DNA of 64,000 nucleotides from Vairimorpha necatrix (Eukaryota): NCBI GenBank assembly GCA_036630325.1, contig CP142726.1, positions 1-64,000 on the forward strand, given 5' to 3'. The position numbers and the translations under genes were made by a program. A model generated the notes under the pieces. That model had not been told where the DNA came from and searched no databases. It worked only from the letters and a program-made list of their open reading frames with translations. Of the stretch, positions 1,754-64,000 are shown piece by piece (the first letter of the stretch is position 1; every line of letters begins with the position of its first letter).

Positions 1754-4700
1754 TGTTATACTTTTATTTAATAGGGGGTTCAACCCAACATCCCCCTAAG
1801 ACGTGTAGTCTCAGGTTACAAGCTTCTAATTTTTCATTTTAATAATCTTTTAGGTCATAATGTCGTTTCTTAATGTATCTTCAGCTATCAGTCCTTACAA
1901 TATAAGAATAATTCTCGCACTTTCCCATTATTTTACCAACATTTGTGAATCTTCCTATCATATTTTTCATCTATTTTCCCAAAATTTTATCTTGCGATTT
2001 TCACAGCCTGATCTACTTCAAGTTTTTCTCTATGATTTTGTTTAAACTTACTTGCATATTCATCCTTTTCATCAATTTCCATAAAGACTTCTTCTCCTTA
2101 TTCTTTCCATGCTTCCATTGGTGTACATTTTATCGCTGTGTAGAGTGTTATTATAGGTTCTTACAGCTTGTTCTAGTTTTTCCTCTGGGTTTCCTTGTTT
2201 TTGATTGATCATCAATTCCCTTATTGTTCAAATACATCGTTCTATTCTTCCATTGCTCCTATGAGATTCTAAACCTACTTTCCGTTGTATAAATTTGTTT
2301 TCTTTACACCAAGTTACGTACTTCTCAGTGAAATATTTCTTACCGTTATCCGAAATATTCATCTAGGCATCCATCTTCATTTATCAATTAACCTAAAATT
2401 TTCGTAATAACATCACTTCCCTTATTTCCTATCTTTGCGCCCCATACTCTTCTTGTAAAGGAGTCAGTCCCTAATAGCACGTATTTTTCTTTTTTTTCAA
2501 TATCCATTACGTCTAAAGCTACTTTTTCTAATTTCTTAAATGTTGTTACAAATTTGGAACCTCCGGTCGTTTTTATGTTATTAATGCAACATACTTTACA
2601 ATTTTTTAGCATTGTGGTTATCTGGTCCAATACCTTGCCAGTACAGTCTTTGTTTTTCCTTATAATAAGTTTTTTCACTCCTCGATGATTTAAATCCTCA
2701 TGAACTCTGGAATTTCTGTCTCTCTTAGTTCTTTGTGTAGTAGTTCTTTAATTTCTCCTGTTGAGAACTTCAAATAGTTTTTACCTTCTCTTTTAACCAT
2801 GCGCTTTATTTGTCTCCCTTTCATCTGTTTTTAAGTCCGTTTCTATCTTTCGCTGCTTTTTTTATCACTTTGTTATTTTTAAATTGTCTACTAAGAGCAT
2901 CTACATCCGTCATCCATTCTCCTTTTACATATTCAATAGTAAAATCGAACTCTTGTATGTTTTTTATCCATCTATTATTTTTGTTAGTTTTGCGAAACGG
3001 TTTGTTTCTAATCTCAGCCAGTTCTTTATGATTTGTCATTTAATGAAATTTGCTTCTCTCAAATCGGATTCGAATTTCTTTATTCCAAATAACACTGTCA
3101 ACATCACTTTTTCATTAATCATATACCTTTTTTCTGTTGCTGTTAACATTTTTGATGCCCATTGTATCTGATTCCACCTTCCTTCTTTGTCTTCTTGCAA
3201 TAGTATAGCTCAAGTTCCCGTATCGTATGCATCTGTCCTTACTCTACACATTTTTTTACTATCTACCATTTTTAATTTTTTCACATCCTTTAAACCCTCT
3301 TTGATATCCATAAGAGCTCTTTCCATATCTTCGGACCATTCCCATTTAACATCTTTTTTTAGTGCTTCTGTAAGAAGCGCTGAAACATAAGCATAATGGG
3401 GAATAAAATCTCTTAACCAGCCTGCACGTCCTCAAATCTCTTAAGCTCTTTCATCTTGTTAGGCCTTCTGTATTCTAATGTCTCTTGCTTTTAAATTTCA
3501 TTTGGAGTTATGTCTTCTCCGTTAATTGTTACTCCAAGTAGTTTTACTTCTCCTTTATATTGTATTTTTTTTAAGTTTTTTTTAATCCACATTCGTTAAA
3601 TAATCGAATTACTTGTTTTAATAAATTTTCGTTTATATTACTATCTCTTGCATGAATAATAATAATATCATCCATATACACCTCAACACTCTTGCCTCTA
3701 AACTTATCTAAAACTCCGTTCATCACTTTTTACATAAAATAGGAAGATTTTTAAATCCCATTACCATGCTATTCTTTTTGTAAACTCTAACATTTATCTC
3801 AAAAGCTTTCTTATGCTTTTGAGCTTTCTTAATTTCTATATGATAGAATCCTTCCTTTAGTTCTATAACCATAAATACAATAGAACCTTATGTTGCCCTA
3901 ATAATGTCTCTAATCAATGGCAATTCATACGGATCTTTTTGCACCAGTTCGTTTAAAGCCATCAAATTGCTTCTAAATTGTACTTCACCATTTAGTTTTT
4001 CTATAGTACTTATTGGGCTTCTCCATTCGCTCTTTGTCCTTCTGAAACTACCTCTACTTTCTTTTAAATTAATATACTTTTCTAACTTTTCTCGAATTAT
4101 AAGAAATATTTTGTCTTTTTATAACTACTTTCACTTCTTGTTTTGTTTTGATAGAATATTTTCCCCCTGTTAAGTATTTTATTTTCCTTTCGTCTTTTCC
4201 TAATACATCAGGAAATTTTCCTTCCAATTCTTCATATTTAATAATATTTTTTCTCTTTTTATCTTGGTTTGTATTTTCCACATAAAAACTGTTTCTTATG
4301 TTCCTCTTTCTACCTCCACTGATAGTCTTAATTTAAAATCATTTTTTTTTAATATTTTCTTTTTACTATTATCACGAACCAAAATATTAAACACTTTTAT
4401 TTTTATTATTCTATTCTTGTTCTCCTTACGCTCTTTACAACCTCTAGCTATATGTATTATTTTCCACATATAAAACAATGGTTTTCTTCTCGTCTTTGAT
4501 ATCAAAAGTTTTTTGCTGGCACTGCTATAGTCCTAGTCAGTTATCCTTTAATCTTCTTTTATATTTTTCTTTCATAACCTCTACCATATATTCAAGTTCT
4601 CTACTCCTTAATTTTTCCTTGTTCTTATTCTCTTTCTTTTCAACAACTAATTTATCAATTTCATCAATAATATCATTCCAATTAATCATACTGGTCAAAT

Positions 4701-4922
4701 TTTTATCAATAATAAAATCCTGAAGTTCAGAAACTTACTTGTTTTATCGACTGCTTTGTTGTCACATCTTTTACATCTTTCTGCATTCTGATGATTGCTT
4801 CAACTCTCTGGGCTTCTTTTAGTAATTTTCTCTTCTCTTAAACACAGGTCTCACTTGTTACCCTTTCATCTTTTGTGTTTGCCATGTTATACATTTATTT
4901 AATAGGAGGTTCAACTTTAACA
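1754..4922 (-). mobile_element. Degenerate full-length mini Ty3/gypsy LTR retrotransposon, copy 1 (37/38-bp LTRs)
   Basis: LTRs 1754-1790 (tgttatacttttatttaatagggggttcaacccaaca) and 4885-4922 (tgttatacatttatttaataggaggttcaactttaaca). TSD TTATA at 1749-1753 and 4923-4927. PPT (TAGGGGGA) and PBS-like TGGCAAACACAA. Frameshifted CCHC knuckle, RT (YMDD at ~3668-3679), RNase H (DVDALSR) and integrase (ALDVMD, FTRRVWG). Confidence 0.92.
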
Positions 4923-34599: not shown

Positions 34600-35231
34600 A
34601 TTTATTGGGCTATTTTATAATAAATTTTAAATAGTGTTAGCATAGCTGTCCCCGGTATCGCTCATGGGATTCAGCTCTTCACAGAATTTTGTTTCTGTGG
34701 AATTATTAATGTTTTCCAACTTCACTTTTTCAGCTTCATTCCCATTTGCCGACATCACTCCTTTAACAGTTGCCATATTCGCTATTGCGCTTACAGCTCT
34801 ATCCACTTCTTCTTCCACTGCATCTGATCGTATACTCGTCGTCGTTCCAAAAAAATGGACTCTAGAGCTTGATCGACAATAGACTGGATATATGCTTCCA
34901 GGTAGAGTTTGATTTTCAGCTTCCTGATATACTTTCTGTGATATTTGGTTATCACTCCATCCCATGTCATCACATAAGGAACTATTCTTGTCCGAAATTT
35001 ATGTATTAGTCCCAGTTCATTTGCAAGAAGGTCATATTTTTTGAGTTTTTCATTCTCAACTATAGTAAGTCGATCCTGGTTGGTTATACCAACTTCAACT
35101 ATTAAAATTTCTTTCTTCTTCTTGTCAAACACAAGAATATCAGGCTTATTATGGGTCACCTTTATATTAGTGGATATTCTCGTATCTACTCTTATTTCTG
35201 CACGATCATTTTCCATGATCTCTTGTACTGG
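34600..35231 (-). mobile_element. 5'-truncated non-LTR retrotransposon with C-terminal restriction-like (PD-D/ExK) endonuclease, frameshifted
   Basis: Translation HNKPDILVFDKKKKEILIVEVGIT...ENEKLKKY. AATAAA at the 3' end. ~21-bp TSD attaaaaa(a)caataaataaata at 34578-34599 and 35232-35252. Confidence 0.9.
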
Positions 35232-35659
35232 ATTAAAAACAATAAATAAATATATATATATATATATATATATATTTATTTATGTACAAGATTATATCTT
35301 AATTTGAGTTCTTACAATTATATAAATTAATAAGCATTTTTACTATTCTGATTTTTTAGAATTGGGGACCGAAACGCTCCACTCTGAGGGGTTTCTCTTT
35401 TTTTTGTAATTAAAAAACGAAGTGACGCAAAAAAGAGAAGCAATCATTACCACTCAAACTACTTGCAACTTTAAACATAAATACCAAATAAATATATATT
35501 TGTATAAAAAATTTAATTTTAAAAAAGAATATTTTTGAAACTATATAATTCTTAAGAATTCAACATATTTTGCATTTAATTTTTTCATTAAACAATCTGT
35601 CTAGATTGTAGAACAATTATTTAATTTTCCTTACATAAATGTTATTTATATTTTTTGGT

Positions 35660-37429: not shown

Positions 37430-37952
37430 ATAAGTGGCTATATATTTAGAGGGTAAAATTTAAGGATATAGTAATTCAGCTTAAAAGAAGTTTTCTTGTA
37501 AATTTATTAGCAATATATAACCGTATGTATTTTTAAACGTAAACAAATTTTAAGGGAAAATTATCAAAAATAAAAAAAATGAAAAATTGACAGCCATCAT
37601 AAATTTAATGATTACTATTATATCTTTATTCAAAAATATGACATTTTAATGTACTTCTGAGTGCCTCGATCTAAATCTCACTATTTAATATTTATTATTC
37701 AAGAATGTGGCAATGAAAAGACAATATGATCTTAGTCTCGAATTATTTTATGCATATTAATGCTTTACAAATGATTTTCAAAATTTTTTTCCTGTCAAAT
37801 ATTTTAAAAAAAGATTTTTACATCTTGTTATGAACTGTAAAAATCTAAGAAAATTATTTTAAAAGTATTTCTCGTTGTTATCTATAAATTTAATCTTTAA
37901 TAAATTCAAGTGTGATCTTGTTGTTATATATTGCTATTTTTAAAGCCCTATT

Positions 37953-39047
37953 ATGTTTTTTATCATGTTTGTTTGCTTATATTTAACTTTCATTGATCAT
38001 GGAAATCATATTATTGAATATTTGTCTGGTATTGTATCCATTTATTTAAAATATCAAGCATTAAGAAGGCATTTACGTATTGAAAATGAATCGAGAATAG
38101 AAATTAAAGAGCAAAATGTGAATGCGTTAGATATAGAATCTTTCAAAAGCGAAGTTGCAAGTGTAATCATTGATGATTTAAGTGAACCAAAGATAGAGTA
38201 TAAATATTATGTAAATATTAATTTTATAGAGGTTTTTCAACACGAAAAAGAATTTAAAAAAAATTCTGATACTGACGCAATTGAATTTAGAGAAAACAAT
38301 ACCATTAAAGTATTGGGTTTTATTAATCGTTCTGATACTGATGCAATTGGATTTAGAGAAAATAATAACAATAATGAATTAGAATTTATAAAACGTTCTG
38401 ATACTGATGCAATTAAATTCAGAGAAAATAATAATAATAAAGAAGTAGAATTTAAAAAGAATTCTGGAACTGATGCAATTGAATTTAGAGAAAATAATAA
38501 TAATAAAGAAGTAGAATTTAAAAAGAATTCTGGAACTGATGCAATTGAATTTAGAGAAAATAATACCAATAAAGAATTAGAATTTGAAAAGAATTTTGAT
38601 ACTAGTACAATTGAATTTCGAGAAAATAATACCAATAAAGAATTAGAATTTAAAAAGAATTCTGAAACTGATGCAATTGAATTTAGCGAAACAAATACCA
38701 ATAAAGAATTAGAATTTGAAAATAATTTTGATACTAGTACAATTGAATTTCAAGAAAACAATACTAAGACAGAATTATATGACAACAATAAACCAGTAAT
38801 CTGTACTAAAGAGGATTACAATCCTAGCAAGCTCGATATCAAACAGGAGATTTCGCAATCAAATCATGTTAATGAAGAAGATTCATCTTCTGATGATGGC
38901 AATACTAAGCGTAACCCTGTGATGTCTCCATCTAATCTAATAACTGTTGTATTATTCATCATTATTCCATTAATAATTCTAGTTATGTATTATTCTTACA
39001 AATTATTTAAGATTAAACATACTAAAAATGCTATAAATGAATTATAA
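37953..39047 (+). CDS. 364-aa repeat-containing surface protein (N-terminal hydrophobic segment, ~8 x 21-aa repeats, C-terminal TM)
   Basis: 63-bp tandem repeats (SDTDAIEFRENNNNKELEFKKN) at ~38250-38770. TM LITVVLFIIIPLIILVMYY. CCC at 37946-37948. Confidence 0.92.
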   Translation: MFFIMFVCLYLTFIDHGNHIIEYLSGIVSIYLKYQALRRHLRIENESRIEIKEQNVNALDIESFKSEVASVIIDDLSEPKIEYKYYVNINFIEVFQHEKEFKKNSDTDAIEFRENNTIKVLGFINRSDTDAIGFRENNNNNELEFIKRSDTDAIKFRENNNNKEVEFKKNSGTDAIEFRENNNNKEVEFKKNSGTDAIEFRENNTNKELEFEKNFDTSTIEFRENNTNKELEFKKNSETDAIEFSETNTNKELEFENNFDTSTIEFQENNTKTELYDNNKPVICTKEDYNPSKLDIKQEISQSNHVNEEDSSSDDGNTKRNPVMSPSNLITVVLFIIIPLIILVMYYSYKLFKIKHTKNAINEL

Positions 39048-41171: not shown

Positions 41172-42506
41172 GATTGAATATAATCGGAAGCATTGATCCT
41201 TGTTTTTTCTCATTCATAATTTCAAAGACTATAATTTATTTTGCTATAGTTTTTTCAAAAACCAAATACAAATTTGCTCGTATAAAATTTATTTTAACCA
41301 GTTGAAATTTAGTCTATATCTACAACGAATTAATGGCCTAAATCTGTCCTGGGTTATTCAAATGCCTATCATATATTCTTTAAAATAATTTCAAACATGT
41401 AAACCACAATTTGTTCGTTACGATCCAACACTTTTATAATTTGAGTTACGCTAACCTAAAAGATCTACAAAATAACATTATAGATAATAAAAATTCTATC
41501 TTACTATTAAAAAATAAAAAATTATTCACAATTGAAAATCTCTGCTTGCTTTTTTAATAAAAAATTTCAGTTATTCTTATGCGGTGTCTCAACTTTGTAC
41601 ATTTAGGTTTTTATTTTTAAAATAGGCTTATTAAATCTTCGGCCTCTTCATTACTTATCCATCTCTTTTTTGAAAAAGGGGGCAATTTTTTAAAAATTTT
41701 ACCCCTGTTATTTTTTCTTACAGGTGCTGATTTTAGCCGACGTTTATTCATATTTTTTGTTTGCTATGATAAGATCTTGAATAAACGGAAACTAGAATAA
41801 AAAATAATATTACTTTGTTTTCTTTTTACGCAAAATATCACATGAGAGAAATGATTTTTTATAATGATGCATTTTTAATTAAAATCATAATTACATAAGC
41901 CAAAATCAAAGTAACTATTGTAAAACACAAAAGAATTACAATGATTATATTATTTCTACTTATTTAGAATGAGGTTTTTATATTGCAAATTAACTAATAC
42001 AATAAAAATAAACATTTTTGAAACATCATCCATAAGACTGATTTTGATTGATCATAATAATAGAATTAAATACATTACATCATTTATGATTTTTAAAATG
42101 TTGTTATTTGTAAAGTTTATTCCAAGAATATATACAGACAATTAGTTCTGAGGCTATTTGTTCATTTTTTAAATAGCATTATAGATATAGTTCAGAGGCT
42201 TTTATTTGAATAAGAACACAAGTTATCATAAACTTTAAAGTGTTTCGTTAATTGTACATATTTAACTAATATCTTTAGTGGTTAACTATTTAGAAAAGAG
42301 TCAATTTTTAATTTGTTAAGCTAAACTTTTTTCACAAGTTCGTTATGATTATTCACTAAATTGATTTTTGAGTTGTAATTTAAAAACAAGAAAAAAGTTT
42401 AAGATATTAGAAAATGTATAGTTTTCTTTATTTGTTTTATCATAAATGTCATAATAAAATTTATATTAATTTTATGAGATAAATATTCAATTAAAAAAGA
42501 ACCCAA

Positions 42507-43808
42507 ATGTATTGGAAGCTTCAAATATTTATTATTTGGGGATATTGTTGGCTATCATTATTTGTTGAGTATAAAGAAAATGATACATGTGATGTATATG
42601 TTGGTGTTACAAGCTTTGCTAGCGGCCTAGAAAACCTGCAAATTACGCTTCTTAAAGACGAAGATTTTATTTCTGAGCGTCCAAATCGAGACGATTTATA
42701 TGATAAAGTAGAACTATCGATGGCAGGTAATAAAAGCGACTTACATCTAGTAAATAGAGAAGAATATGAAAAAATCAAAGCAGCATCATCAAAATTTAAT
42801 CGCTACGATTGTGTTTCAAAATTTATTAATAGTGCAAAATATTATAAATGTACAATCAACTTAGCGGATGGAAGAAAATATTTTTTTGGACTTCTTTTAG
42901 AAAGAGCGAATAATGGACCCAAAGATCTTTCTTACACACAATTATTTAATTTTGATGGTAATTTACATTTTGGGGAGCTAGTCATACTAAAAGCAAGAAA
43001 AATTATAAATAATTTGAGCCAGAATAGTTCAAATGTAATAAATAATTCTGATAAGAAGGGTACTAATAATTTGGATAATAGTAATAAGAATCCTGAGCAA
43101 AATGATACTTATGAAAATACTAAAGAGAATAAAAAACATCTCAATGTAGAACCGATTAAAAATTTTAAGAACGAAAGACTTGATGCTGATCTAAGTAACA
43201 TAAGACCTGATGATAATCTTGATAACGAAACTTCTGATAAGAATTTAAATAACTCGGAAACCGAGAAAACTTTATTGGACGAAACGCCTGATAAGATTCT
43301 AGGCAATTTGGAATCTGATAATAATCTTATAAAAAAATTCTCAGATAAAAATGGCAACGTAGAACTGGATAATAATCTTGAGAAAGAAGAATATAGTGTA
43401 AATTCAAAAAATTCAGAAACTTATGATAATCTTGCGAACAAAACTCCTGATACAGGTCTTGCGGACGAAACACCCGATAAGAACCTAAATTATTCGCAAT
43501 CAGAACCTGATAAAAATCTTGATGACGAAACGCCTGATCAGAATCCAGGCAATTTAGGGCTCGAGAATGAAAAGTTTGAAAAAAATCTAGTTGAATCGGA
43601 ATCTGATAATAATCTTGAGAACGAAAAAGCTGATAAAATTCTAAAAACCTCGATACCTGATAGTAAACACGACAATAATAACAATGATTCAAAAGACAAT
43701 CCCAATGACAGAAATAACAAACCATATCTTTATTTGTTGTTATATGCCATTTTCATATTAATATTTGCTTTTTCGGTATTTTTGTTAAGAAAAATAAATA
43801 AAAATTAA
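42507..43808 (+). CDS. 433-aa type-I membrane/surface protein, orphan family member 1
   Basis: Signal-like N-terminus, conserved ~150-aa domain, Asn/Asp-rich degenerate repeats (DETPDKNL) and C-terminal TM YLYLLLYAIFILIFAFSVFLL. CCC before the ATG. Confidence 0.92.
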   Translation: MYWKLQIFIIWGYCWLSLFVEYKENDTCDVYVGVTSFASGLENLQITLLKDEDFISERPNRDDLYDKVELSMAGNKSDLHLVNREEYEKIKAASSKFNRYDCVSKFINSAKYYKCTINLADGRKYFFGLLLERANNGPKDLSYTQLFNFDGNLHFGELVILKARKIINNLSQNSSNVINNSDKKGTNNLDNSNKNPEQNDTYENTKENKKHLNVEPIKNFKNERLDADLSNIRPDDNLDNETSDKNLNNSETEKTLLDETPDKILGNLESDNNLIKKFSDKNGNVELDNNLEKEEYSVNSKNSETYDNLANKTPDTGLADETPDKNLNYSQSEPDKNLDDETPDQNPGNLGLENEKFEKNLVESESDNNLENEKADKILKTSIPDSKHDNNNNDSKDNPNDRNNKPYLYLLLYAIFILIFAFSVFLLRKINKN

Positions 43809-49185: not shown

Positions 49186-50923
49186 ATGTCATTAAAATTA
49201 TATTGGTATTTTATTTTTAATCACTGTGAGTTGATATTATTTGTAGGTTATATGGAGATAATCAATGTGATTTATATATTGGCAAAACAAATAAAGCTGA
49301 CGAATTGAACGAATTTAAAATATTCATTTCTAGAGATAAAAACTTGTTTTATAAAGAAATTAAAGATCAATTGAAACTTAAGTACGAAATTAATCATCTT
49401 TTTGAAACTGGACTGTTTTTACATCAAATAGATGAAAGAGAATATGCTTCAATAAGAAATCTGGCCGAAAATCTTGAAGATGAAAATAGAAAATTAAGTT
49501 TTTTAATTGCGTACAATATTATAAATACAGTTTCAATATTTTAGAATATAATCAAATTTGTTTTGAAATAGTTTTCTATGAGAAAAACATAAATACTATT
49601 TGTTGGGGACATACAAAAGTATTTACTTTAGAAAAAAAAAATATTTTCAATACATTAAGTATGGAAAGAAAAATGCGATTATTTATCGATTCAAAGAATA
49701 ACGATTTATATTATAAATTTTTAGGTTTGCCCAAAAGATCAAATACTTTATATGCGAATATCGTTGGTGATAATACACAAAAGGAACATATTACCTTTTC
49801 AACGCTAGTTATGTTAGACATATATCGTATTAAAGAATCAAATGTACAAAATGCTTATAATTTAGAGAAAAAAACAATAAATGAATATAATCCTATCAAT
49901 TTGCAACATTTAAAACTTGTTTGTGTTGAAAACTTATTAGCTAAAAATAATTACTACGAAACCATTTTGGAAGCTAAAAATGATATCGAATTAAAGGGAA
50001 TAACAAAATATAAATTAATAACTTCATATTTTAGTTATCTATATAACAATAAAATCTTTCTTAGATACAAAAAGAAGAAATTAAAAAAACGTGATATTTT
50101 AGACGATCATAATATGAGTAATAAAATTAGAAATTTTTTATACATACATAACCCTCTTAATTCCATATGTATATATAAAAATAAAAAAATATATAAGGAA
50201 AATAAAAAGAATGTTAATATAAATGATTACAATAGAAGAAAGTATGCCGGAAATGAAGTACTAAAAAATAAACAAGATAAGAGATCTATTATTAGTTACA
50301 AAACTGCTATAAATGAGATATTAATAAAACCAAATATTAGAGAATATCATGATATGTTTAAGAAAATTAAAAATGTCTATATAGCGTCAATAATTCATAA
50401 TGGAAATTTCAATAAACGATACGAACACCCTATTCATGCCGTTTTCAAAGATTATATTTATTATGGACATAATTGTAGTAAATTTGCTAAAATTGACCTG
50501 AATTTAATAGTAGTATATATTCTCACAGTTATTAAAAAACAAAATACATGCACAAATTTGAAAGATTATAATCAAGAAAATACTAAAAAACACATAGTAT
50601 ATTACAATACTTTCGAATTCGATTCTAAAACTATTGTAGAACATAAAATAAATCCATTCGAAAATTCCAACAATAGTTTAATGATTGAAAATGGAGAAAC
50701 TAATACAAACTTAGTAAAAAATAATACCATGGATGTTCTAAACAGGAGTAAAGATCTCGAGGATAATATTTTATCACGTGAAAAATATTTTTTTTCTGAT
50801 TCGGAATCAAATAATGACAATTCCAACAACAGAAATGGGCCATCTAAGTTCAATTACTTGTTTTTTATCTTAATCCTATTGATTTTTTCATGTTCCATTT
50901 ATTTTAAATTGAAGCGCGAATAA
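49186..50923 (+). pseudogene. Orphan family member 2 (~580 aa reconstructed) with two 1-nt frameshifts (~49252, ~49506)
   Basis: cccttATG at 49186. MSLKLYWYFIFNHCELILFVGY/GDNQCDLYIG aligns with LFVEYKENDTCDVYVG. After the second shift, NCVQYYKY..FEIVFYE..W matches the paralogues. It joins ORF 49661-50923, which ends in a TM. Confidence 0.75.
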
Positions 50924-53900: not shown

Positions 53901-54856
53901 CGATTTGTTTTTCAATAATTGATAAATTATCGTAATTTAAAAATTGTATGCACATTATGTCTATATTTTTTTATTAAAATTAAATGAAGATATTTAAAGT
54001 TAGAAGTTTTGATATAAAACTTTTTTACATTACAATTTTTAATCGGATAAAATTGTTTTATTAAATTCAACACGCCAAAAGACTCTCGAACAGACCGACA
54101 ATAGAATTAAAACAAATGATAATAACATTCTATATTTTTACTGTATTTGCTTATCTTTTATAGTAAAGATATAAATTACAAGAGTCATGAATGTAACGAT
54201 TTAAAATTTGTGCTTTAAAATAATACCGTTCAAAAAAAATTTTGTTATAATTCTAAAAAACTGATCAACCGAATAAAATGCTCTGTTGTATTAAATTCTT
54301 TTATAAAATCAATGAATTTGATAAATAAATACTTATTAATTACAGATGATAAAAATCTAATTACTAGGCTTTTGCTTTCAAATAGTTTTTGATGAATATT
54401 ATAAACGTGAAATAATTTCAGAACGTTATAAGAAATTTAGTTGGTACAATTGATCAATGAATAAGAATTGGATGTTTTAATCTTATCCATACCAAACAAA
54501 AGTTTTATTTATAACTTCACTCCCATCCTTTGCGACCTAAACAAATTATGTATATATTGGATGCTACACATTAGCTACTAATAGATGATTTTTTCATTTT
54601 CTGTTTTTCTATTTTTAATCTGATGTGAATTTTATATATATAATAATTTGCAGGAAAAAAATGAAGACACGAATTATTTTAGTTGCTAAAACGGACAAGT
54701 TTTTTTCGAAAAAATATTTTTTCGATAAAAAATAATGTTTAAACAGAAAAAACAATAAAATGCAAACCCTTTTTAAGTAAAAAATATCAAGTTGATAACT
54801 GTCAATTTATGATTTTTATTAATTATTTATATAAATATCGATAATTTATGGCCCCA

Positions 54857-55456
54857 ATGTTATTAGGGTTAACTAAGTCTATTCTATTTGTATATAGCGA
54901 CTCATATTTACTATTTAATTATAAAGAAGATGATACTTGTAATTGTTATATTAGTCTTCCTAATAAAGCAGAAATTGATGATAATTGCAAAGTTTTTTTG
55001 TCTAAATACGAAAAACGGTTGTACGAAGAAGCAAGACATTCATGTAGTGCTGATATCTTCATAAAAAAAGTTTATGAGGAAGGACTTATACTGGAAGTGG
55101 TGGATAAAAAAGATTACGAAAAAATTGGAAGATTGGCTGGAATAATTACCAATGTGAAAACCCGTGAGATATTTTTGAACAATGAAAATTATCGAAAGTG
55201 TAGTTTGAATAAATGCCAGCACACAAATTTTTTTTTCGAAATTGTATTTTATGAACCGAAAAAACATAAAATTACATGGGAACATAGTGCAATGTACGAT
55301 TACGATCCGAAATATGTTTTCGGTAAACTAATGCTACACAGAACTAGAAGTTTAACTATAAGTGCTGGGTTTTATGAATTATATATAGAAAATTTAAACT
55401 CCTCCATTCGCTCGGATACACATAAATTGAACATTACAAATGACAAAAGGACATAG
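54857..55456 (+). CDS. Orphan family member 3 (~199 aa, N-terminal domain only, no TM; possibly truncated)
   Basis: LLFNYKEDDTCNCYI, VDKKDYEKI, YRKC, FFEIVFYE and FGKL match 42507 and 49186. The CCCC motif favours ATG 54857 over 54848. Confidence 0.8.
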   Translation: MLLGLTKSILFVYSDSYLLFNYKEDDTCNCYISLPNKAEIDDNCKVFLSKYEKRLYEEARHSCSADIFIKKVYEEGLILEVVDKKDYEKIGRLAGIITNVKTREIFLNNENYRKCSLNKCQHTNFFFEIVFYEPKKHKITWEHSAMYDYDPKYVFGKLMLHRTRSLTISAGFYELYIENLNSSIRSDTHKLNITNDKRT

Positions 55457-56610
55457 AAAAAAAGAATTGAAGATATAGACAACAAAAAAATACCGATGTT
55501 CATAAAAAGAAAACTTACGAAAAAAATCTAAAGTTTCTAACACAGCTTTAGAAATTAAATGTAATATTTTTAATTGGTAATATATATTATAAAGAAAATT
55601 TGCTTTTTTAAATTTTTAAGAATCATTTTAGAGATAATTTTTGTTTTCGACATAGCTGAGAGCAATTGTATGATTCTTTTGAGAATTAAATGTGTTAAAC
55701 AAGAAGCGGACACGAGAATAATTCTTTATTATGAACATGGATAATTGTAGTGACCAAATAACTAACAAGCTAGCTTGAGATGCGTAAAATCAACGGCATA
55801 CTAGAGTATATACAAAGTCTTCTACATCAGAAGTGATTTTTGTATATATCTGATAACTTTTTAAGGTATAAGCTTGAAGTTGCTTGAAAGAAAGGTCTAG
55901 AGCTGTAAAACACTGATCAGACAGACAAATACTATAAAGAAGAAGCGCGAATGAGTTGACCCAGTAAAATATATAAAATTTACAAAAATGAACATTTGCA
56001 GTAAATACAAAACTGGATAACTTAATTTTTCTTGATAATGTTAATTTATACATCAATATTTTCTATAATCGAAAATTATTAATCATAGTCTTTTATTTAA
56101 ACTACATGGTTCTTTTATTTCGTTTAAATATATAACGTATTTATATTTCTTTTTATTGATAATTTTAAAGTGAAATTATTTGTAATATTATACTAAATAT
56201 TTGAAATTTATTGACCAACTTTGTCTTTAGGTATATGGTTTCTAGTATAGTAAATTAAGATAAAATTTTTGTTTTCAAAAGATATAAGTAAACATTTACA
56301 AATATACATAATTGATTATGCTAAAACATTTTACGTATGTAAATGCTATAATATTTTAAAAAACGTTTTTAGTGATTATAATTAAAACACTTAGAAAGCA
56401 TATCAAAAATTAATTTAGAGTAATCATATGGCAAAATTGATCTAAAACAAGATAAAAATCACAAATAATCAAGTTTCTCCCAAATTTTAAAAAAATGATT
56501 TGATTACAAAAAAATTGTAACTAGTTATCATTACTTTTAATTTATCATAGACGATATAAATAACTCGCTATTTTTTTTAGATAATGTTAACCATTTATTT
56601 ATTGAGGGTT

Positions 56611-59112
56611 CTAAACCCTACATCCCCCCTCCAGACGGGTAGTCTCTCCATCTTCTAAACAACTCTTCCTTATCTCTTTCAAATCATAATGCCTCTTTTT
56701 AACAATTTTACCATCCAGTAGTCTCACAATATATGAATCATTTTCACTTATAGCTACGATCCTTCCGCGACCCGTGAATCTTCCCTTGTCTGTTTTCGCA
56801 CGTGTACCTAAATTTTCTCTCCTAGCGATTCTTACCTCTTTGCCTACTGTAAATGTCTCTCTGTGTCTTCTCTTGAACCGACCAGCATATTTTCCATTTT
56901 CATCATTTTCAATTATAACTTCAGCAGTTTGATCTCTCCACGCTTCCATCGGCGTACATTTTATTGCTGTATGTAGTGTATTATTATATCCTTTGATTGC
57001 TCTTTCTATCTTTTCAGAAATATTCCCATCATTCAGCTTTATCAATGTCTCTCTTATAGTTCTGATGCATCTCTAGATTCTACCATTACTCCTATGAGCT
57101 TCTAAGCCCACTTTCCTATGTTTAATATCATTAATACTACATCATTCTTTAAATCTATTACTTACAAACTCTTTTCCGTTGTCTGTCACATATTCCTCTG
57201 GAAATCCATCTTCCCTTATCCACTTTTGTAATACCTCTATAACTTCACTACTCTCTTTACACCTCAAATTCGAACCCCACAACCTTCTAGTAAAGTAATC
57301 AATACCCAGTAACACATACCTATTCTCTCCACCTATGTCCATTAAATCCAACGCCACTTTCTCCAATTTCTTTCTAGTTACTACGAAATCACATCCTCCT
57401 GTGTTTTTCCTATTGTTAATCCCACATATTTCACAATTCTTAATTACCTTATTAATATGATCTTTCATACCAGGCCAATACCATCTTTGTTTAATGTTAT
57501 AATAAGTGCCTTTGACACTTCTATGGTTTAACTCCTCATGTACTCTTGTTATTTCATGTTCTCTACTATCTAGGCTCAATATCTCTTTCACCTCACCTGT
57601 GGAAAATTCCCAATACTGTTTACCGTCCTTTTCTTTAATATGTTTCTGCTTTTTTCCCAAAATTTGTTTTTCGATCACTTCTTTTCTCTTGTTGTCCTTT
57701 TCTTTTTGTTAATCCGAAACTTCTACCTGATCATACTGCCTACTTAACGCATCTGCATCTGTCATCAACTCCCCTTTCACATACTCTATTGTAAAGTCAA
57801 ACTCTTGTATCTGTTCTACCCATCTGTTTATTCTGTTATTATTGAAGTATGGCTTATTTCTGATCTCTGCTAATGCTTTATGATCCGTCATCAAATGAAA
57901 TTTCCTTCCTCTCAAATCACTTTCAAACTTCTTTATTCCAAAAAACACCGCCAACATCTCCTTCTCACTTATCGTATATCTTCGCTCGGTAGGAGTCAAC
58001 ATTTTCGATGCCCATTGTATCGGAATCCACTCACCCTCTTTATTTTCTTGTAATAGAATTGCTCCGATCCCCGTATCACACGCATCAGTTTAATACTCTA
58101 AATAGCTTTTTTCCGTCCGGAATCTTCAACTTTTTCATATCTCTCAAGCCTTGCTTCATATCCTCAAAAGCTCTTTCCATATCCTCCGTCCAATTCCACT
58201 TAACATCTTTCTTTAAAGCCTCAGTAAGCCTTACTGTTCTATACGCATAGTTGGGAATAAAGTCTCTAAACCAACCAGTTAGTCCTAAAAATCTTCTTAA
58301 CTCTCTAACATTCTCAGGTTTTCTATATTCCAATGTCTCCTGCTTTTTAATCTCATTCGGTCCCATGACCTCCCCATTAATTGTTACTCCCAGCAACATC
58401 ACCTCATCTTTTTTGTATTGTATCTTTGTTTGGTTTATTCTCAACCCACACTCTTTAAACTTTTTAATTACCCTCTCTAGTAACTCGTCATGCACTCTTA
58501 CGTCTTTACCATGAATAACTATATCATCCATATATACTTCCACGCCTTTACCTCTGAATTCATCTAAAACTCTGTTCATTACTCTCTGCATTATATGAGG
58601 CGAATTCTTAAACCCCATAACCATACTATTCCATTCGTATACTCGACCATTCACTTCAAATGCTGTTTTGTGCTTATGGTGCTCCTCAATCTCAATATGA
58701 TAAAACCCTTCTTTTAAGTCGATAACCGTAAATACTTTTGACCCCTGTGTGGCTCTCATAATATCCTTAATTAACGGTAGTGAGTACGGGTCCTTGTCAA
58801 CCAAATCGTTTAACGCCATCAAATTGCTTACCAATCTTACGTCCCATTTGGTTTTTCAAGTTCTCTTTTTGGACTTCTCCACTCACTTTTGGAACGTCTT
58901 ATAACCCCTCTATTTTCCAACTTATTCAAGTACTCCTCAAATTTCACCCTAAGGTAGTATGGCACATTCTGCCCTCTTTTCACAACCTTTTCACCTTGCT
59001 TAGTATTTATTGGACACTTCTCTCCTGTGAGATATTTTATCTTTTCTTCTGATTCTTTAAAAACTTCCGGATACTTTTCAATTAAATTTTCTAACTTATT
59101 TACTGTTTTACA
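56611..59112 (-). pseudogene. pol: pol: RT, RNase H and integrase, with 2 frameshifts and 3 internal stops
   Basis: DLKEGFYHI, MGFKNSP, YMDDIVI; TDACDTG, EKEMLAV, ADALSR; HEELNH..CEIC, ALDLMD, TDNGKEF. The third catalytic residue position (SNGRI-E-R) reads TAG at ~57074. Confidence 0.92.
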
Positions 59113-59613
59113 TCATTTCCCTTCATTGTTGATAATTGGTTCTTTCTGTAAAACTTGTTCCTTTTTAATTTTATATTTTTCCCTACCAGCTACACTTTCA
59201 TGACATTCTCTAGCGTAATGCCCTTCTTTCTTACATATAAAACATTTTGTAGTTTCTCTGATTTCCCTTCTTTTCCTATACATCCTAAGATTTTCTTTTC
59301 TTTCTTCCCTAAACTCTTTCAACACTTTATCCATAATCTCTTTAATCATTTCTTGTCTTTCTTCTGACTCTCTCTCAAATTCTGCTCCTTTTTGTAAGCC
59401 TTTATAAATTTCCTCCCAACTGCTCCTTCCGTCACAAAAATTTTCAAAAATATAATCCTGCAAGTTCGCAGATGCCAAATCCATAACATCTTTCCACTCA
59501 ACTTTCAATATTAACTTTAGTCTCTTATCTATCCTAATTGCCTCTTTCTCTAATGTTCTAGCCTCTTGACTACGGGACTCTCTTGTTTCCCTGTTCATCC
59601 TTGTGTTCGCCAT
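59113..59613 (-). CDS. gag: Short Gag (~166 aa) with CCHC zinc knuckle
   Basis: CFICKKEGHYAREC. The MANT N-terminus is conserved with copy 1. Confidence 0.8.
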   Translation of the reverse strand: MANTRMNRETRESRSQEARTLEKEAIRIDKRLKLILKVEWKDVMDLASANLQDYIFENFCDGRSSWEEIYKGLQKGAEFERESEERQEMIKEIMDKVLKEFREERKENLRMYRKRREIRETTKCFICKKEGHYARECHESVAGREKYKIKKEQVLQKEPIINNEGK

Positions 59614-62600
59614 GTTAACCATTTATTTATTAAGGGTTCTAAACCCTACAGATAATGTTCTATAAGATATAACTTTTACAAATGTATTTTTTATAAAAAA
59701 TCGATTCGAATGTATTTATTACATAAATTTAAATTTTAAGGGCAGAGAATGGATTTAAGGGTTAATACAAAAACCATTTATAACTTTAAATATTCAATAG
59801 AACCCTTTTGCAGTTTAACATTATACATATGCTGAAAATAACTTCGGTATAATTTATTTTAATAAATGTTTTTATTGCTAATATTATTCTACTTGTTTTG
59901 TAAAACATTAATTTAATGTACTATTAGCAAATTAATAATATTTTGAAGTTTATAGCTCATACTAATGTGTTCATGACAAATTAAAATTCAAAACTAACGA
60001 GGTCTACAAAACATATGCCAATGTATTATAGAAAGTCTTTAATTTCTATTATACAACTAAACGTTAAATATATACTTAAAACATCAATGTTATTTTTTAT
60101 TTTTTACTTATAAAATAACGTTTTTTTTTCGAATTAACAAAATATTTAGATTGTAACAAATTTTATATAAGTATTTCAAACTACCCAAGAATATAAACTA
60201 TTGTGGAAATTTTTTAAAAAATCATAATACCAATGTATTTGTCTAAAAAATTCTCTTTACTATACAATCATTGCATCTATATGGTAGTAACGAATTGATA
60301 TATTGTGGCTGTTAAATGTATTATTTTTAATACACAATTTACTTTACCTCATACCTTACGATGTGTATTTTAGTGTATAGATTGCTTTATAAAAACAAAA
60401 ACTGACTTTAATAAATTAATAAGATGGTAATATTTGAAAATTTACATTGGTACTACAAAAGAAGCTGGTAAATTTGCAGATTTTCAAAAAATTTCTCTTC
60501 AAAGAAGAAGGTTTAACGTCCGTAAAAAAACATTGCACATAGCTTTTGTTATTGTCATTGATTTTCTTTTTTAAAATAGATTTGTTAAATAATGCGTTCC
60601 TTTCCTTTTAATATTTTTAAATGGATAAAATATATATTTATTATTATTATTAGTAAATAATTTACAGTAGATGCATTGGGTAAGTATCTACAATAAAGTA
60701 TTACTGAAGTGTCTTAGTATCTATATCATCATCTTGTAAATGGTTTTCTTATGTTTACAGTAGCAAAAAAACGAATATGAAAAAAATAAAAGTCAAGAGG
60801 TCAAACTAAAGGTGAGGACACCAGGAAAAAATTTTACAATAATGTATAGTATCGTAAACGTAGCATGAATAATTAAAATAAAGTAAAATTTAAGAGAAAG
60901 TCTTTATTGAAAAAAAAACAAGAAACTCTTGATTAGGCACACATTTAAGTGTTCATTTTTTAGAAAAAAGGGATTCATGTATATGGCATTTGTATCAAAT
61001 TAAAAGTATCTGAAATTTTTTTTTGATTTTTTTAAGTAAAAAAAATTGTTGAATTTTCTAATCATTTGCATGTTATTGATTCTAAAACAAAAATTGAACG
61101 CAATAAACCAGATATATGAAGCGCTCAATAGTTTTATCGAAATTACATATTAAAAATACAATTTGATATATGAGAAATCGCGAGCATTGACAGAAGCGAT
61201 TTGTTTTATGCAAATACGAAAATTAATTAAAAAATAGATAAGACCTAGAGCCTCTTAATGCAGATAATCACTTAATAAATTACAAAAAAATAAATTGTTT
61301 ATTTAAAATAAACCACTTTAAGAATACGATGCCTTTACTAAGTATGATCACAATGTAAATATAAAAAAAAATTTTATTTAAATGTTTAATTTTAGTTTAG
61401 TCTTGCACCAAATAAACTTGATACCTATAATTTGTGCAGTTGAGAAAACGACGATCAAGACGAATTTAAAGATGAAGAGTAGACTAATTCCTATTTATCA
61501 GGTTCTGATAACTAAACTGGCAATTATTCATTGTGTTGCTCTCATTTCTGCTTTCAATGTGGTTTTATGTTCAATCCAAGTGGAATTTCATTAGGGTTTT
61601 AATAAAAATGTAATATCCAAATTTTAATGTGTTAATTTTCACTTAAGCGTTGACTACGTGAAATTAGGTTAGGTTTATATAAAATTGCATGATTAAACCT
61701 TTGTAACTTGTCATTAAATGTTTTACGTTAAGAATTGATATATTAATAATTAATATATCATATCTTAATATGTTTTGTCCACAATAATACGATTGATCAA
61801 ATGAAACAAATCACTTGTTTAACCTTTGACTAATATAATAATATAAAATTTAAAGCTATGGTTTCTGACAAATCACAAAAAAAATTTATGCTAAAATATC
61901 AAACCTTAGCTTTTTGAGATGGTTTTTAATATTAATATAATGCAAAAGAAATCAAATTCTTATATATTTTTTCGTAGACAAAAAAAATTTTCAGTACAAC
62001 TACCATTCAAAGGTCCATGTACAAACACAATTTTATGATATATATATATATAAGAATTTATTGTGCAAAAAAAAATATATTTATAATTAATGCATGCGAC
62101 AACTTCATTATTACAGTATATCAGTTAATAGATAAAAAACTTAAAAGCGATTGTTTCTTATAGATATTATGTACTGTAACAAATGAACCATTGCAAAAAG
62201 TAATAAAGTTATATGTTTACTAATTTTAATTCCTAAAACTTTGTGTATAAGGCAAACAAATTTTGATACATACAGCAATGTTTATTATATCTTTTAAAAA
62301 CAATTCTTTGAACTTATGTGTTTGAATTTAATTACTATATTTTATTTCTTGTTTTATAATAAAAAATTCTATGAAACAATTATACGCGGATTTTCAATAT
62401 TGATTTTCGCTAGTATATGTTAATTACATTGAAAAAATACTCTTATGTATGTGTTTCTGTTTTAAATTTTTTTTATTAATTTTAGCCGAAATGTATGAAT
62501 TGTATTTACAAATTAAAAAACCTTTTTAAGAGCATAAGATTTGATGTTTATCATAAACAAATATCCTGCTTATTTAGTGCATAGATTTTTGTATGTTATA

Positions 62601-64000
62601 TAATACGTTCAATACTGTTTTAACGCTAAAATTATAAATATTTATTAATATACAATTGTAAAGGCCGATGTATCTTAAGTTTTTGATATAATTAATTATA
62701 AACAAAGGTCATATGTACAAATATAGCACCGAATATATAAAATATCATAACCAAAATTAGAATTGTACGATAGGATTCATTTTGTCTATGCTTTTAAGTT
62801 ATTGATGTCATTAAACTCAAGATGATTAAAAAACCATTAAAAATATAGTTAGAAAAACAAGAATATTAATTTCGAAAAATACATTTTTATAATCCAAAAT
62901 ATACAATATAAAGGTTTTTTCTATTTAAATCGCAAATACAACTATAAATGAGTTAGATATAAAAAGTTTTAAAAAAAATTATTAAAAGTCAAAATCTTTA
63001 GTTATCTATAGTGAATGTTGTAGATAATGATATCGAATCTGTAAATCTATCACTGTTAGTATTTTTTTATAAGAATATAAATTTAATGCAAACCAACGTA
63101 TCAATATAATGCTTTCGTGTGGATTGTTTTTGTAAAAGAAAAATGAAAAAGCTAATTTTTTAAAAAACTAATTTTATACTTTTAGTAGAATATAAACATT
63201 AAAACTAGTATTAAACTTTTGACTATTATAATTGTTATTTACTTGCACATAATTACATATAACGCAAATCTCTGATTTTTTAAATAAAAAAAATGTCATC
63301 TGTTCATTATTTTACTAGAGTAAAGCCTCAAGATCAAAATAAATATTATCCAGAGATTAGAAATTGTTCTTGATAAAAATCTAATTTTTTTGATCTTTAT
63401 ACATATGCGATTTAAAGAATGTTAATTTATTTATGGGGTGTTTTTGATCAGAATTAATATTTGACGTATAACCCAATAAATGTTAATAAAAATTAAAGTG
63501 AATTGTCTGTAACAAGATTTTCTTCTCGTAGCATATTTAATACTAACAAATAACAAATATGTAATATGTATTTACTTAGATATTGAGGTTAATTAAACAC
63601 ATCATAAAGCCTTTCTAGAGGCTTTCTTTTATTTTTCGACATTTGTTAAATTAAATATATTACAATTTCGGTTTTTTTTTACGAAAATCATAAATTTGAA
63701 AAGACGTCAAAGTCATGTATATTGTAATTTATTATATAAAAAACGAATTATCTGAACCCTTATGGTTTGTAAAATATTTTTGTATTTTCTTTTTGGTTGC
63801 AGTAAAATAACTTTTTTTGTAAATCACAAAGAAAATAATGTTTGTGATGGATACGTTGGATTTTCAAAAGAAGTTGATATATATGATGAAGTCAAAATTT
63901 TTCTCTCTTATGATTTAAATATTTTGGAAATAAAAATTGATTCTAACTCATACGTTGCAGATATCGTAACATTAGTAAGTGAATTTGGTTTACCTCTGTT

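Follow-up and report, generated by a model that had tools for sequence, protein, structure and literature searches.

Ty3 of Saccharomyces cerevisiae, an element with separate GAG3 and POL3 frames and long terminal repeats (LTRs) of several hundred base pairs, is the best match of solved structure (Gag-Pol chain 7q5b, E=3e-121; Ty3 reverse transcriptase (RT) 4ol8, E=4e-102) to a family of retroelements that we describe here from 64,000 nucleotides of the microsporidian Vairimorpha necatrix (contig CP142726.1 of assembly GCA_036630325.1, positions 1 to 64,000; this whole stretch is hereafter called the window). In textbooks, no autonomous LTR retrotransposon or retrovirus is without an aspartic protease, and maturation of the retroviral polyprotein is a drug target. 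The element with which we are mainly concerned, copy 2, is a complete but dead Ty3/gypsy-type element of 3066 bp at 56585–59650 on the minus strand, recognized by its terminal repeats, target-site duplication, order of Pfam domains and lesions. The region between its CCHC zinc knuckle and its RT is the Gag/RT junction of a decayed microsporidian Ty3/gypsy-type LTR retrotransposon whose lineage has deleted the retropepsin gene, and the protease is absent from the element as well as from the protease-less clade to which it belongs.

The window family and Ty3 have in common the domain order knuckle, RT, RNase H and integrase (IN), and the likeness extends to TG...CA repeats, a 5-bp duplication and, in copy 2, tracts resembling a primer-binding site and a polypurine tract. 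Unlike Ty3, the window family has one frame and 38-nt LTRs. The two also differ at the junction: in Ty3, 305 residues separate the knuckle (C267–C280) from the RT position used for the comparison, against 68 in the window family, and the 237 extra residues of Ty3 hold its protease.

Among microsporidia, a survey of Ty3/gypsy groups (Parisot et al. 2014, PMC4202319) describes a single polyprotein where gag and pol would otherwise occupy frames of their own, and the window family shares with the groups described there both this feature and the microsporidian hosts. The word "protease" occurs zero times in the main text of that paper and in one supplementary file of it. Our literature search turned up no paper stating that any lineage of LTR retrotransposons, gypsy or other, is without a protease; the one match joining "protease-less" with LTR retrotransposons was dismissed, as the words had been joined within a reference list. 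The absence of a protease from microsporidian gypsy elements thus appears not to have been stated in the literature found.

The Gag/RT junction holds no protease

In copy 2, the knuckle (CX2CX4HX4C, residues 127–140, 59203–59244 on the minus strand; Pfam zf-CCHC, E=2.5e-4) and the LIEKYPEVF motif that leads into the RT (from residue 180, 59085) are separated by 39 residues, one of which is an in-frame TGA (59113–59115). This linker (59086–59202, minus strand) occupies the usual site of the protease, and its length agrees with a preliminary description of this DNA, made from the letters alone, which had put the gap at about 40 codons. For copy 1, a second and more decayed element, the same description gave 65–70 codons; here the decayed knuckle ends near 4437 and the FPDVL motif starts near 4215, leaving about 74 codons with one frameshift and no protease. 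The further claim that the gap holds no D-[S/T]-G motif proved correct: the coding frames of the two copies contain no D[ST]G other than that in TDA(C/Y)DTG of the RNase H, and copy 2 has one further instance, in a non-coding frame inside the RT.

Pfam searches (E≤1) returned an aspartic-protease family for none of the six open reading frame (ORF) pieces of copy 2 and for none of the six pieces of copy 1 around the junction. A clade profile of the protease, built from nine protease-bearing relatives, recognized 56 protease carriers among 266 proteins retrieved from the database, as a positive control, and reached a best E of only 0.84 against the 846 six-frame ORFs of the window (at least 30 aa). 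When the same profile was compared by hhalign with that of the protease-less polyproteins, it aligned at E=0.23 over 28 columns, placed in the RNase H, whereas the control proteins P0201/P0203 (E=8e-5) and P0210 (E=3e-4) aligned upstream of the RT over 89–98 columns. Since protease-bearing relatives need at least 102–132 aa between the knuckle and the start of the RT, the gap of copy 2 is too short for a retropepsin; it is a disordered linker of 39 aa, in which we found neither the D-[ST]-G loop with a downstream hydrophobic-hydrophobic-Gly motif nor a beta-rich domain of about 90–100 aa, the marks of a retropepsin (peptidase family A2/A11 type). The absence of a protease, as proposed in the preliminary description, has therefore withstood profile and structure searches over the entire element and its intact relatives (Pfam, the protease profile, hhalign and AlphaFold), none of which revealed one. 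When the full-length model was submitted to Foldseek, every match was an RT chain, and this search is hence uninformative on the protease.

Predicted structures give the same picture. In the AlphaFold model of the copy 2 junction (predicted local distance difference test (pLDDT) 77.8), helices at residues 14–37, 43–49, 52–63 and 69–124 are placed with pLDDT above 90, one Gag-like helix measuring 56 residues, and these are followed by the knuckle and then by a low-confidence stretch up to the start of the RT. The model of an intact relative, P0152 (1002 aa, pLDDT 82), is of low confidence only at residues 1–12, 119–136, 158–192 and 642–656, of which 158–192 runs from the knuckle to the RT and 642–656 from the RNase H to the IN. 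Judged from this model, no fold would be left unaccounted for in P0152, save for the stretch 119–136 within the Gag-like part.

That Gag-like part (residues 1–126 of copy 2, 59245–59622 on the minus strand; a median of 133 residues before the knuckle in 30 full-length relatives) is short, as had been suggested, with four helices and no recognizable two-domain capsid in the 126 residues that precede the knuckle. Pfam gave no capsid or Gag family for the domain in the window, the knuckle being the only match, and none occurs among the 25 most-matched families listed for the 37 members scanned. Foldseek against the PDB yielded nothing at E≤0.001 and only local matches to retroviral nucleocapsid knuckles; the BFVD fold search likewise yielded nothing at E≤0.001, and in the VIA fold search, where Z reached 6.6 at best, the matches were generic helical bundles and the best 50 rows included no capsid. 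Language-model features lean weakly towards Gag/capsid clusters, with scores of 0.88–0.89 that lie under the 0.9 line of the tool and serve as a lead only. The domain is therefore Gag-like by its position and its knuckle, and is about half the usual size.

Protease-less relatives and the history of the loss

With the junction as query (261 aa, with X at the stop), an exhaustive HMMER search gave 147 matches; P0004, the closest full relative, drew 134 in a word-based search. Many of the matches are uninterrupted frames, about 1000 aa long, that take up whole contigs of 3.0–3.3 kb, and open polyproteins of this size with the layout Gag-like domain, RT, RNase H and IN were found in Nosema granulosis, V. 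necatrix, V. apis, Enteropsectra breve and Nematocida minor. Intact members run as a single frame from LTR to LTR and begin with a Gag-like domain of four helices and about 125 aa; a single CCHC knuckle comes next, then a short disordered linker whose length varies, RT, RNase H, a second variable linker and IN. Twelve catalytic or zinc-binding positions of RT, RNase H and IN, together with the IN Glu, are invariant in all 27 full-length protease-less members; given that the relatives retain these enzymes in full, we ruled out a non-autonomous element of the large retrotransposon derivative (LARD) or terminal-repeat retrotransposon in miniature (TRIM) type.

The short junction is a property of the family. 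A knuckle and an RT start are both present in 90 database proteins; 75 of them have a linker of 17–107 aa (median 47), and 74 of the 75 give no protease match, the sole exception being P0210 with a compact protease; the remaining 15 have linkers of 132–416 aa, and 14 of them carry a protease, the exception being P0143 with a Lys/Glu-rich linker. Pfam analysis of 39 matches is consistent with this division: in 11 the knuckle ends 104–147 aa before the start of RVT_1 and no protease family is found, and a further 11, more distant, match gag-asp_proteas, Asp_protease_2 or RVP, which serves as a positive control. In protease-bearing proteins that show a knuckle and a full RVT_1 the spacing is 359–448 aa (the protease of P0069 being recognized by the clade profile). 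Two proteins were considered as possible holders of a protease and rejected, namely P0143 (168-aa linker) and P0165 (VVDTG in a 107-aa linker), both linkers being of low complexity with no match to the protease profile and no second motif. The family alignment is nearly gap-free over residues 181–980 and rich in insertions and deletions in the knuckle-to-RT linker, the RNase H-to-IN linker and the middle of Gag; the two junction linkers are its richest insertion/deletion zones, and no conserved motif was found in either of them. A 2A-like NPGP skipping motif, as a substitute for a protease, occurs in none of 39 members.

Copy 2 itself carries four in-frame stops (the TGA at 59113–59115, and 57709–57711, 57142–57144 and 57073–57075, the last three in or bordering the integrase region; all on the minus strand) and two frameshifts. 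Contigs about 99% identical to copy 2 from four other public runs read AGA, GAA, TGG and GAG at the four stops, with AGA (Arg) in place of the TGA at 59113–59115, and have a one-base insertion or deletion at both frameshifts. One such contig spans 58230–59630 with no more than two insertions, of 9 nt and 1 nt, so that the short junction is shared by the intact version. In the N. granulosis proteins P0002 and P0003 the frame stays open from its start, MANTR..., past the knuckle and on into RT and RNase H, again with Arg at the place of the TGA. Programmed readthrough of this TGA was ruled out in view of the Arg in the relatives and in the four runs and of the five other lesions in the copy. At window position 59496, copy 2 lacks 9 nt (three codons) of the Gag-like domain that are present in contigs of three runs and in the N. 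granulosis proteins.

To place the loss, trees were built on the RT-to-IN columns only, by FastTree with 99 rows and by IQ-TREE with 40 rows, and the two agree. All protease-less rows fall, together with three protease-bearing ones, in a clade with support of 100, whose first branch is P0210 (DSG) and in which P0201 (E. breve) and P0203 form another branch (DAG, DTG). Within it, a wholly protease-less clade of 19–39 rows (support 99) includes the window copy beside P0004 (70% identity). The window copy groups with proteins of V. necatrix, E. breve and N. minor, as expected of a microsporidia-specific gypsy element, and its relatives are single gag-pol frames of 934–1188 aa. Intact close relatives thus carry no protease at the junction, in keeping with the preliminary description, and only the distant clade members P0201, P0203 and P0210 do, which makes the loss derived rather than refuting it. 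Because these early branches still carry the protease at exactly the same position, the trees indicate that the loss is derived, through one or two events, and old; it predates the spread of the family across several microsporidian genera. The family itself has inserted recently.

The protease-bearing members of the clade (P0201, P0203, P0210 and the loci L004 and L005) are the nearest outgroups. Like the window family they are compact single frames, theirs being of 1100–1119 aa, and they differ in having a protease of about 90 aa (DTG, DSG or DAG with LIG/IIG) directly upstream of the RT, which makes them about 100 aa longer. The P0203-like locus L004, with its protease at ORF residues 217–309, is flanked by terminal repeats that are identical over at least 67 nt (41–107 and 3924–3990, 3883 bp apart), and very short LTRs are therefore not confined to protease-less members.

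Action of a polyprotein without its own protease

The reading that we favour, at even odds in our judgement from the sequences, is that the polyprotein acts uncut and in cis. In that case the Gag-like module of helices and knuckle, perhaps oligomeric, would bind and chaperone in cis the RNA of its own element, flexible linkers would keep RT/RNase H and IN tethered to that RNA, and replication would proceed as a ribonucleoprotein (RNP) rather than in a protease-matured capsid. This is suggested by the junctions, which hold only non-conserved spacers, and by the lack of any 2A-type motif; moreover, a single frame means that Gag and Pol are made 1:1, which suits an RNP more than it does a closed shell. 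Among reverse-transcribing elements, hepadnaviruses and long interspersed nuclear elements (LINEs) also do without a protease of their own. The hepadnavirus P protein is an uncut multi-domain protein with a variable spacer between functional domains, and LINE ORF1p and ORF2p are uncut proteins, the ORF1p coiled-coil and/or CCHC RNA-binding module acting in cis. They are offered as analogies only: neither shows homology to the window family beyond the RT, both are without a retroviral-type integrase and LTRs, and the likeness concerns mode and not membership. A wider claim, plausible and yet in our view on the doubtful side of even, is that a whole long-lived LTR clade gave up both the protease and the protease-matured capsid in favour of one uncut protein of about 115 kDa, a LINE-like cis-acting RNP, and an element of 3.1 kb with 38-nt LTRs.

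Several points weigh against an uncut polyprotein. In the canonical systems, Ty1, Ty3 and the retroviruses, mutants in the protease are not known to transpose or infect, and an element acting uncut would therefore have had to adapt to this mode. The variability of the linkers is as much to be expected of a junction cleaved by a protease as of a tether. Enteropsectra breve holds both the protease-less P0176 and the protease-bearing P0201, and in at least one genome a protease could therefore be supplied in trans. Finally, Gag, protease, RT, RNase H and IN are attributed to nearly all retrotransposons of Nosema bombycis (Nbr) by Williams et al. 2008 (PMC2474625), who cite Xu et al. 2006 for this.

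The alternatives differ in whether a protease exists at all and where it would come from; the preliminary description had offered, beside an uncut polyprotein, a protease of another element or of the host. We regard it as somewhat unlikely that the polyprotein is cut at its two disordered linkers by a protease of the microsporidian host, such as a Ddi1-type retropepsin or a cytosolic endopeptidase. Both junctions are disordered and exposed, as a non-specific endopeptidase requires, the protease-less clade persists in several genera, and a host enzyme is always present where a helper element perhaps is not; on the other hand, the linkers conserve no motif, and our literature search found no paper tying Ddi1 to microsporidia. 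That the element is instead a partial parasite, with RT and IN of its own and a protease borrowed from a co-resident protease-bearing gypsy element, seems to us distinctly improbable. Candidate lenders exist, namely the protease-bearing members of the same clade, one of them sharing the E. breve genome with P0176, and the N. bombycis elements said in the passage cited above to carry a protease (PMC2474625). The protease-less clade, however, is deep and species-rich and has kept all its enzyme residues, and no protease was found in the 64-kb window. Retropepsin activation needs co-assembly in one particle, and co-assembly with such a helper looks unlikely because the Gag parts are unrelated in sequence: those of P0201 and P0203 are about 200 aa long without a CCHC knuckle, and the profile of the protease-less N-terminus aligns with the knuckle-bearing P0210 only from the RT start onward. 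A search for named relatives of the Gag-protease part of P0201 returned only P0201 itself.

Of still lower probability is a divergent or other-type protease hidden in the Gag-like N-terminal domain, which we consider very unlikely. Residues 1–126 are the sole folded part without a family assignment, and the fold searches gave no clear match; yet the domain is all-helical with its 56-residue helix, whereas retropepsins are beta-rich, the language-model features point, if weakly, to Gag/capsid clusters, and no catalytic-looking conserved residues stand out, the frequency of the commonest residue averaging 0.26–0.38 over residues 1–120. Least credible of all, and hardly to be entertained, is that the missing protease is a mere artefact of decay in two dead copies. 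Both copies are indeed broken, by six lesions in copy 2 and more in copy 1, but the 99%-identical version from the four other runs keeps the same junction, as do 74 database proteins, 29 of them 934–1188 aa long.

A diverse and recently mobile protease-less clade with constrained RT, RNase H and integrase would mean that maturation by an element-encoded protease is dispensable, and the family would offer a natural minimal system (about 1000 aa, 3.1 kb) for asking what Gag, capsid and processing are needed for. Elements with 38-nt LTRs and no protease also escape standard LTR finders and domain-based classifiers, and as a result microsporidian repeat content and contamination of metagenome bins are mis-annotated.

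Layout of the two elements and the rest of the window

All features of copy 2 lie on the minus strand. The 5' LTR (38 nt, TG...CA, 59613–59650) holds AATAAA and an upstream in-frame ATG, the 3' LTR (38 nt, 56585–56622) contains the pol stop codon (TAG), and the two are identical at 37 of 38 positions. They are flanked by a 5-bp target-site duplication, GATAA on the plus strand (59651–59655, partner 56580–56584). The 5' LTR is adjoined by a TGG... tract resembling a primer-binding site (TGGCGAACACAAGG, 59599–59612), the gag ATG (59611–59613) spanning the border between the two, and the 3' LTR by a tract resembling a polypurine tract (GGAGGGGGGA, 56623–56632). The Gag-like frame with its one CCHC knuckle (59116–59622) is followed by the RT (58379–59085), which comprises N-terminal fingers (58843–59085) and Pfam RVT_1 (58379–58828), is interrupted by a frameshift near 58842 and is the part matched by Ty3 RT 4ol8. 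RNase H (Pfam RT_RNaseH, 57799–58089) has a frameshift at its start (58091–58093), and the integrase (Pfam, 56614–57708) includes an H2C2 zinc domain (57409–57564), a catalytic core from 57345 and a C-terminal domain. The Pfam domain order is thus zf-CCHC, RVT_1, RT_RNaseH, Integrase_H2C2 and rve. Placement of the element in Ty3/gypsy (Metaviridae) follows from the Pol order RT, RNase H, integrase in copy 2 and from the TG...CA terminal direct repeats and 5-bp target-site duplications of both window copies, whose LTR length of 37–38 nt is far under the usual Ty3/gypsy range.

Copy 1 (1754–4922, minus strand) belongs to a different family, with 68% DNA identity to copy 2, LTRs of 37 and 38 nt and a 5-bp target-site duplication, TTATA; it is inserted about 220 bp from the end of a telomere-like repeat tract. 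The LTRs of both copies (59613–59650/56585–56622 and 4885–4922/1754–1790) carry AATAAA together with the first in-frame ATG. An LTR outline TGT(A/T)GGGTT...AATAAA...AACA is common to the two window families and to the metagenome relative L080 (L080:2724–2761). Close relatives, namely L080, P0004 and P0207, are filed under the names of bacterial metagenome-assembled genomes (Clostridium sp., Bacteroidales bacterium and Turicibacter sp.), which looks like eukaryotic contamination of metagenome bins.

The window has a G+C content of about 22%, and the nearest named homologues of its retroelement proteins are all microsporidian, from the same five species that supplied the open polyproteins (N. 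granulosis, V. necatrix, V. apis, E. breve and N. minor). Its first 1534 bases (positions 1–1534) consist of irregular CCTAA/CCTA repeats (TTAGG/TAGG on the opposite strand) that are telomere-like, and the window probably starts at the end of a chromosome. The telomere-like repeats are followed by 3–4 copies of a 19-nt tandem repeat, ATAAAAATTGAAAATTTGT (positions 1–1534 and 1617–1692 taken together). No tRNA gene was found in the window. A subtelomeric group of ORFs without Pfam matches lies on the plus strand (42495–43808, 54845–55456 and 63756–63998, also 37944–39047 and 49490–50923); three of these ORFs share an N-terminal motif, YKE(N/D)DxC..Y(V/I), and three end in a hydrophobic tail, and the group is probably a species-specific family of membrane or secreted proteins. 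The ORF at 37944–39047 (plus strand) has about eight tandem 23-aa repeats, DTDAIEFRENNNNKE.EFKKNS. Finally, the ORF at 34791–35279 (minus strand), with no Pfam match, contains a stretch, KPDILVFDKKKKEILIVEVGI, that resembles a PD-(D/E)xK nuclease motif, and may be a remnant of another mobile element.

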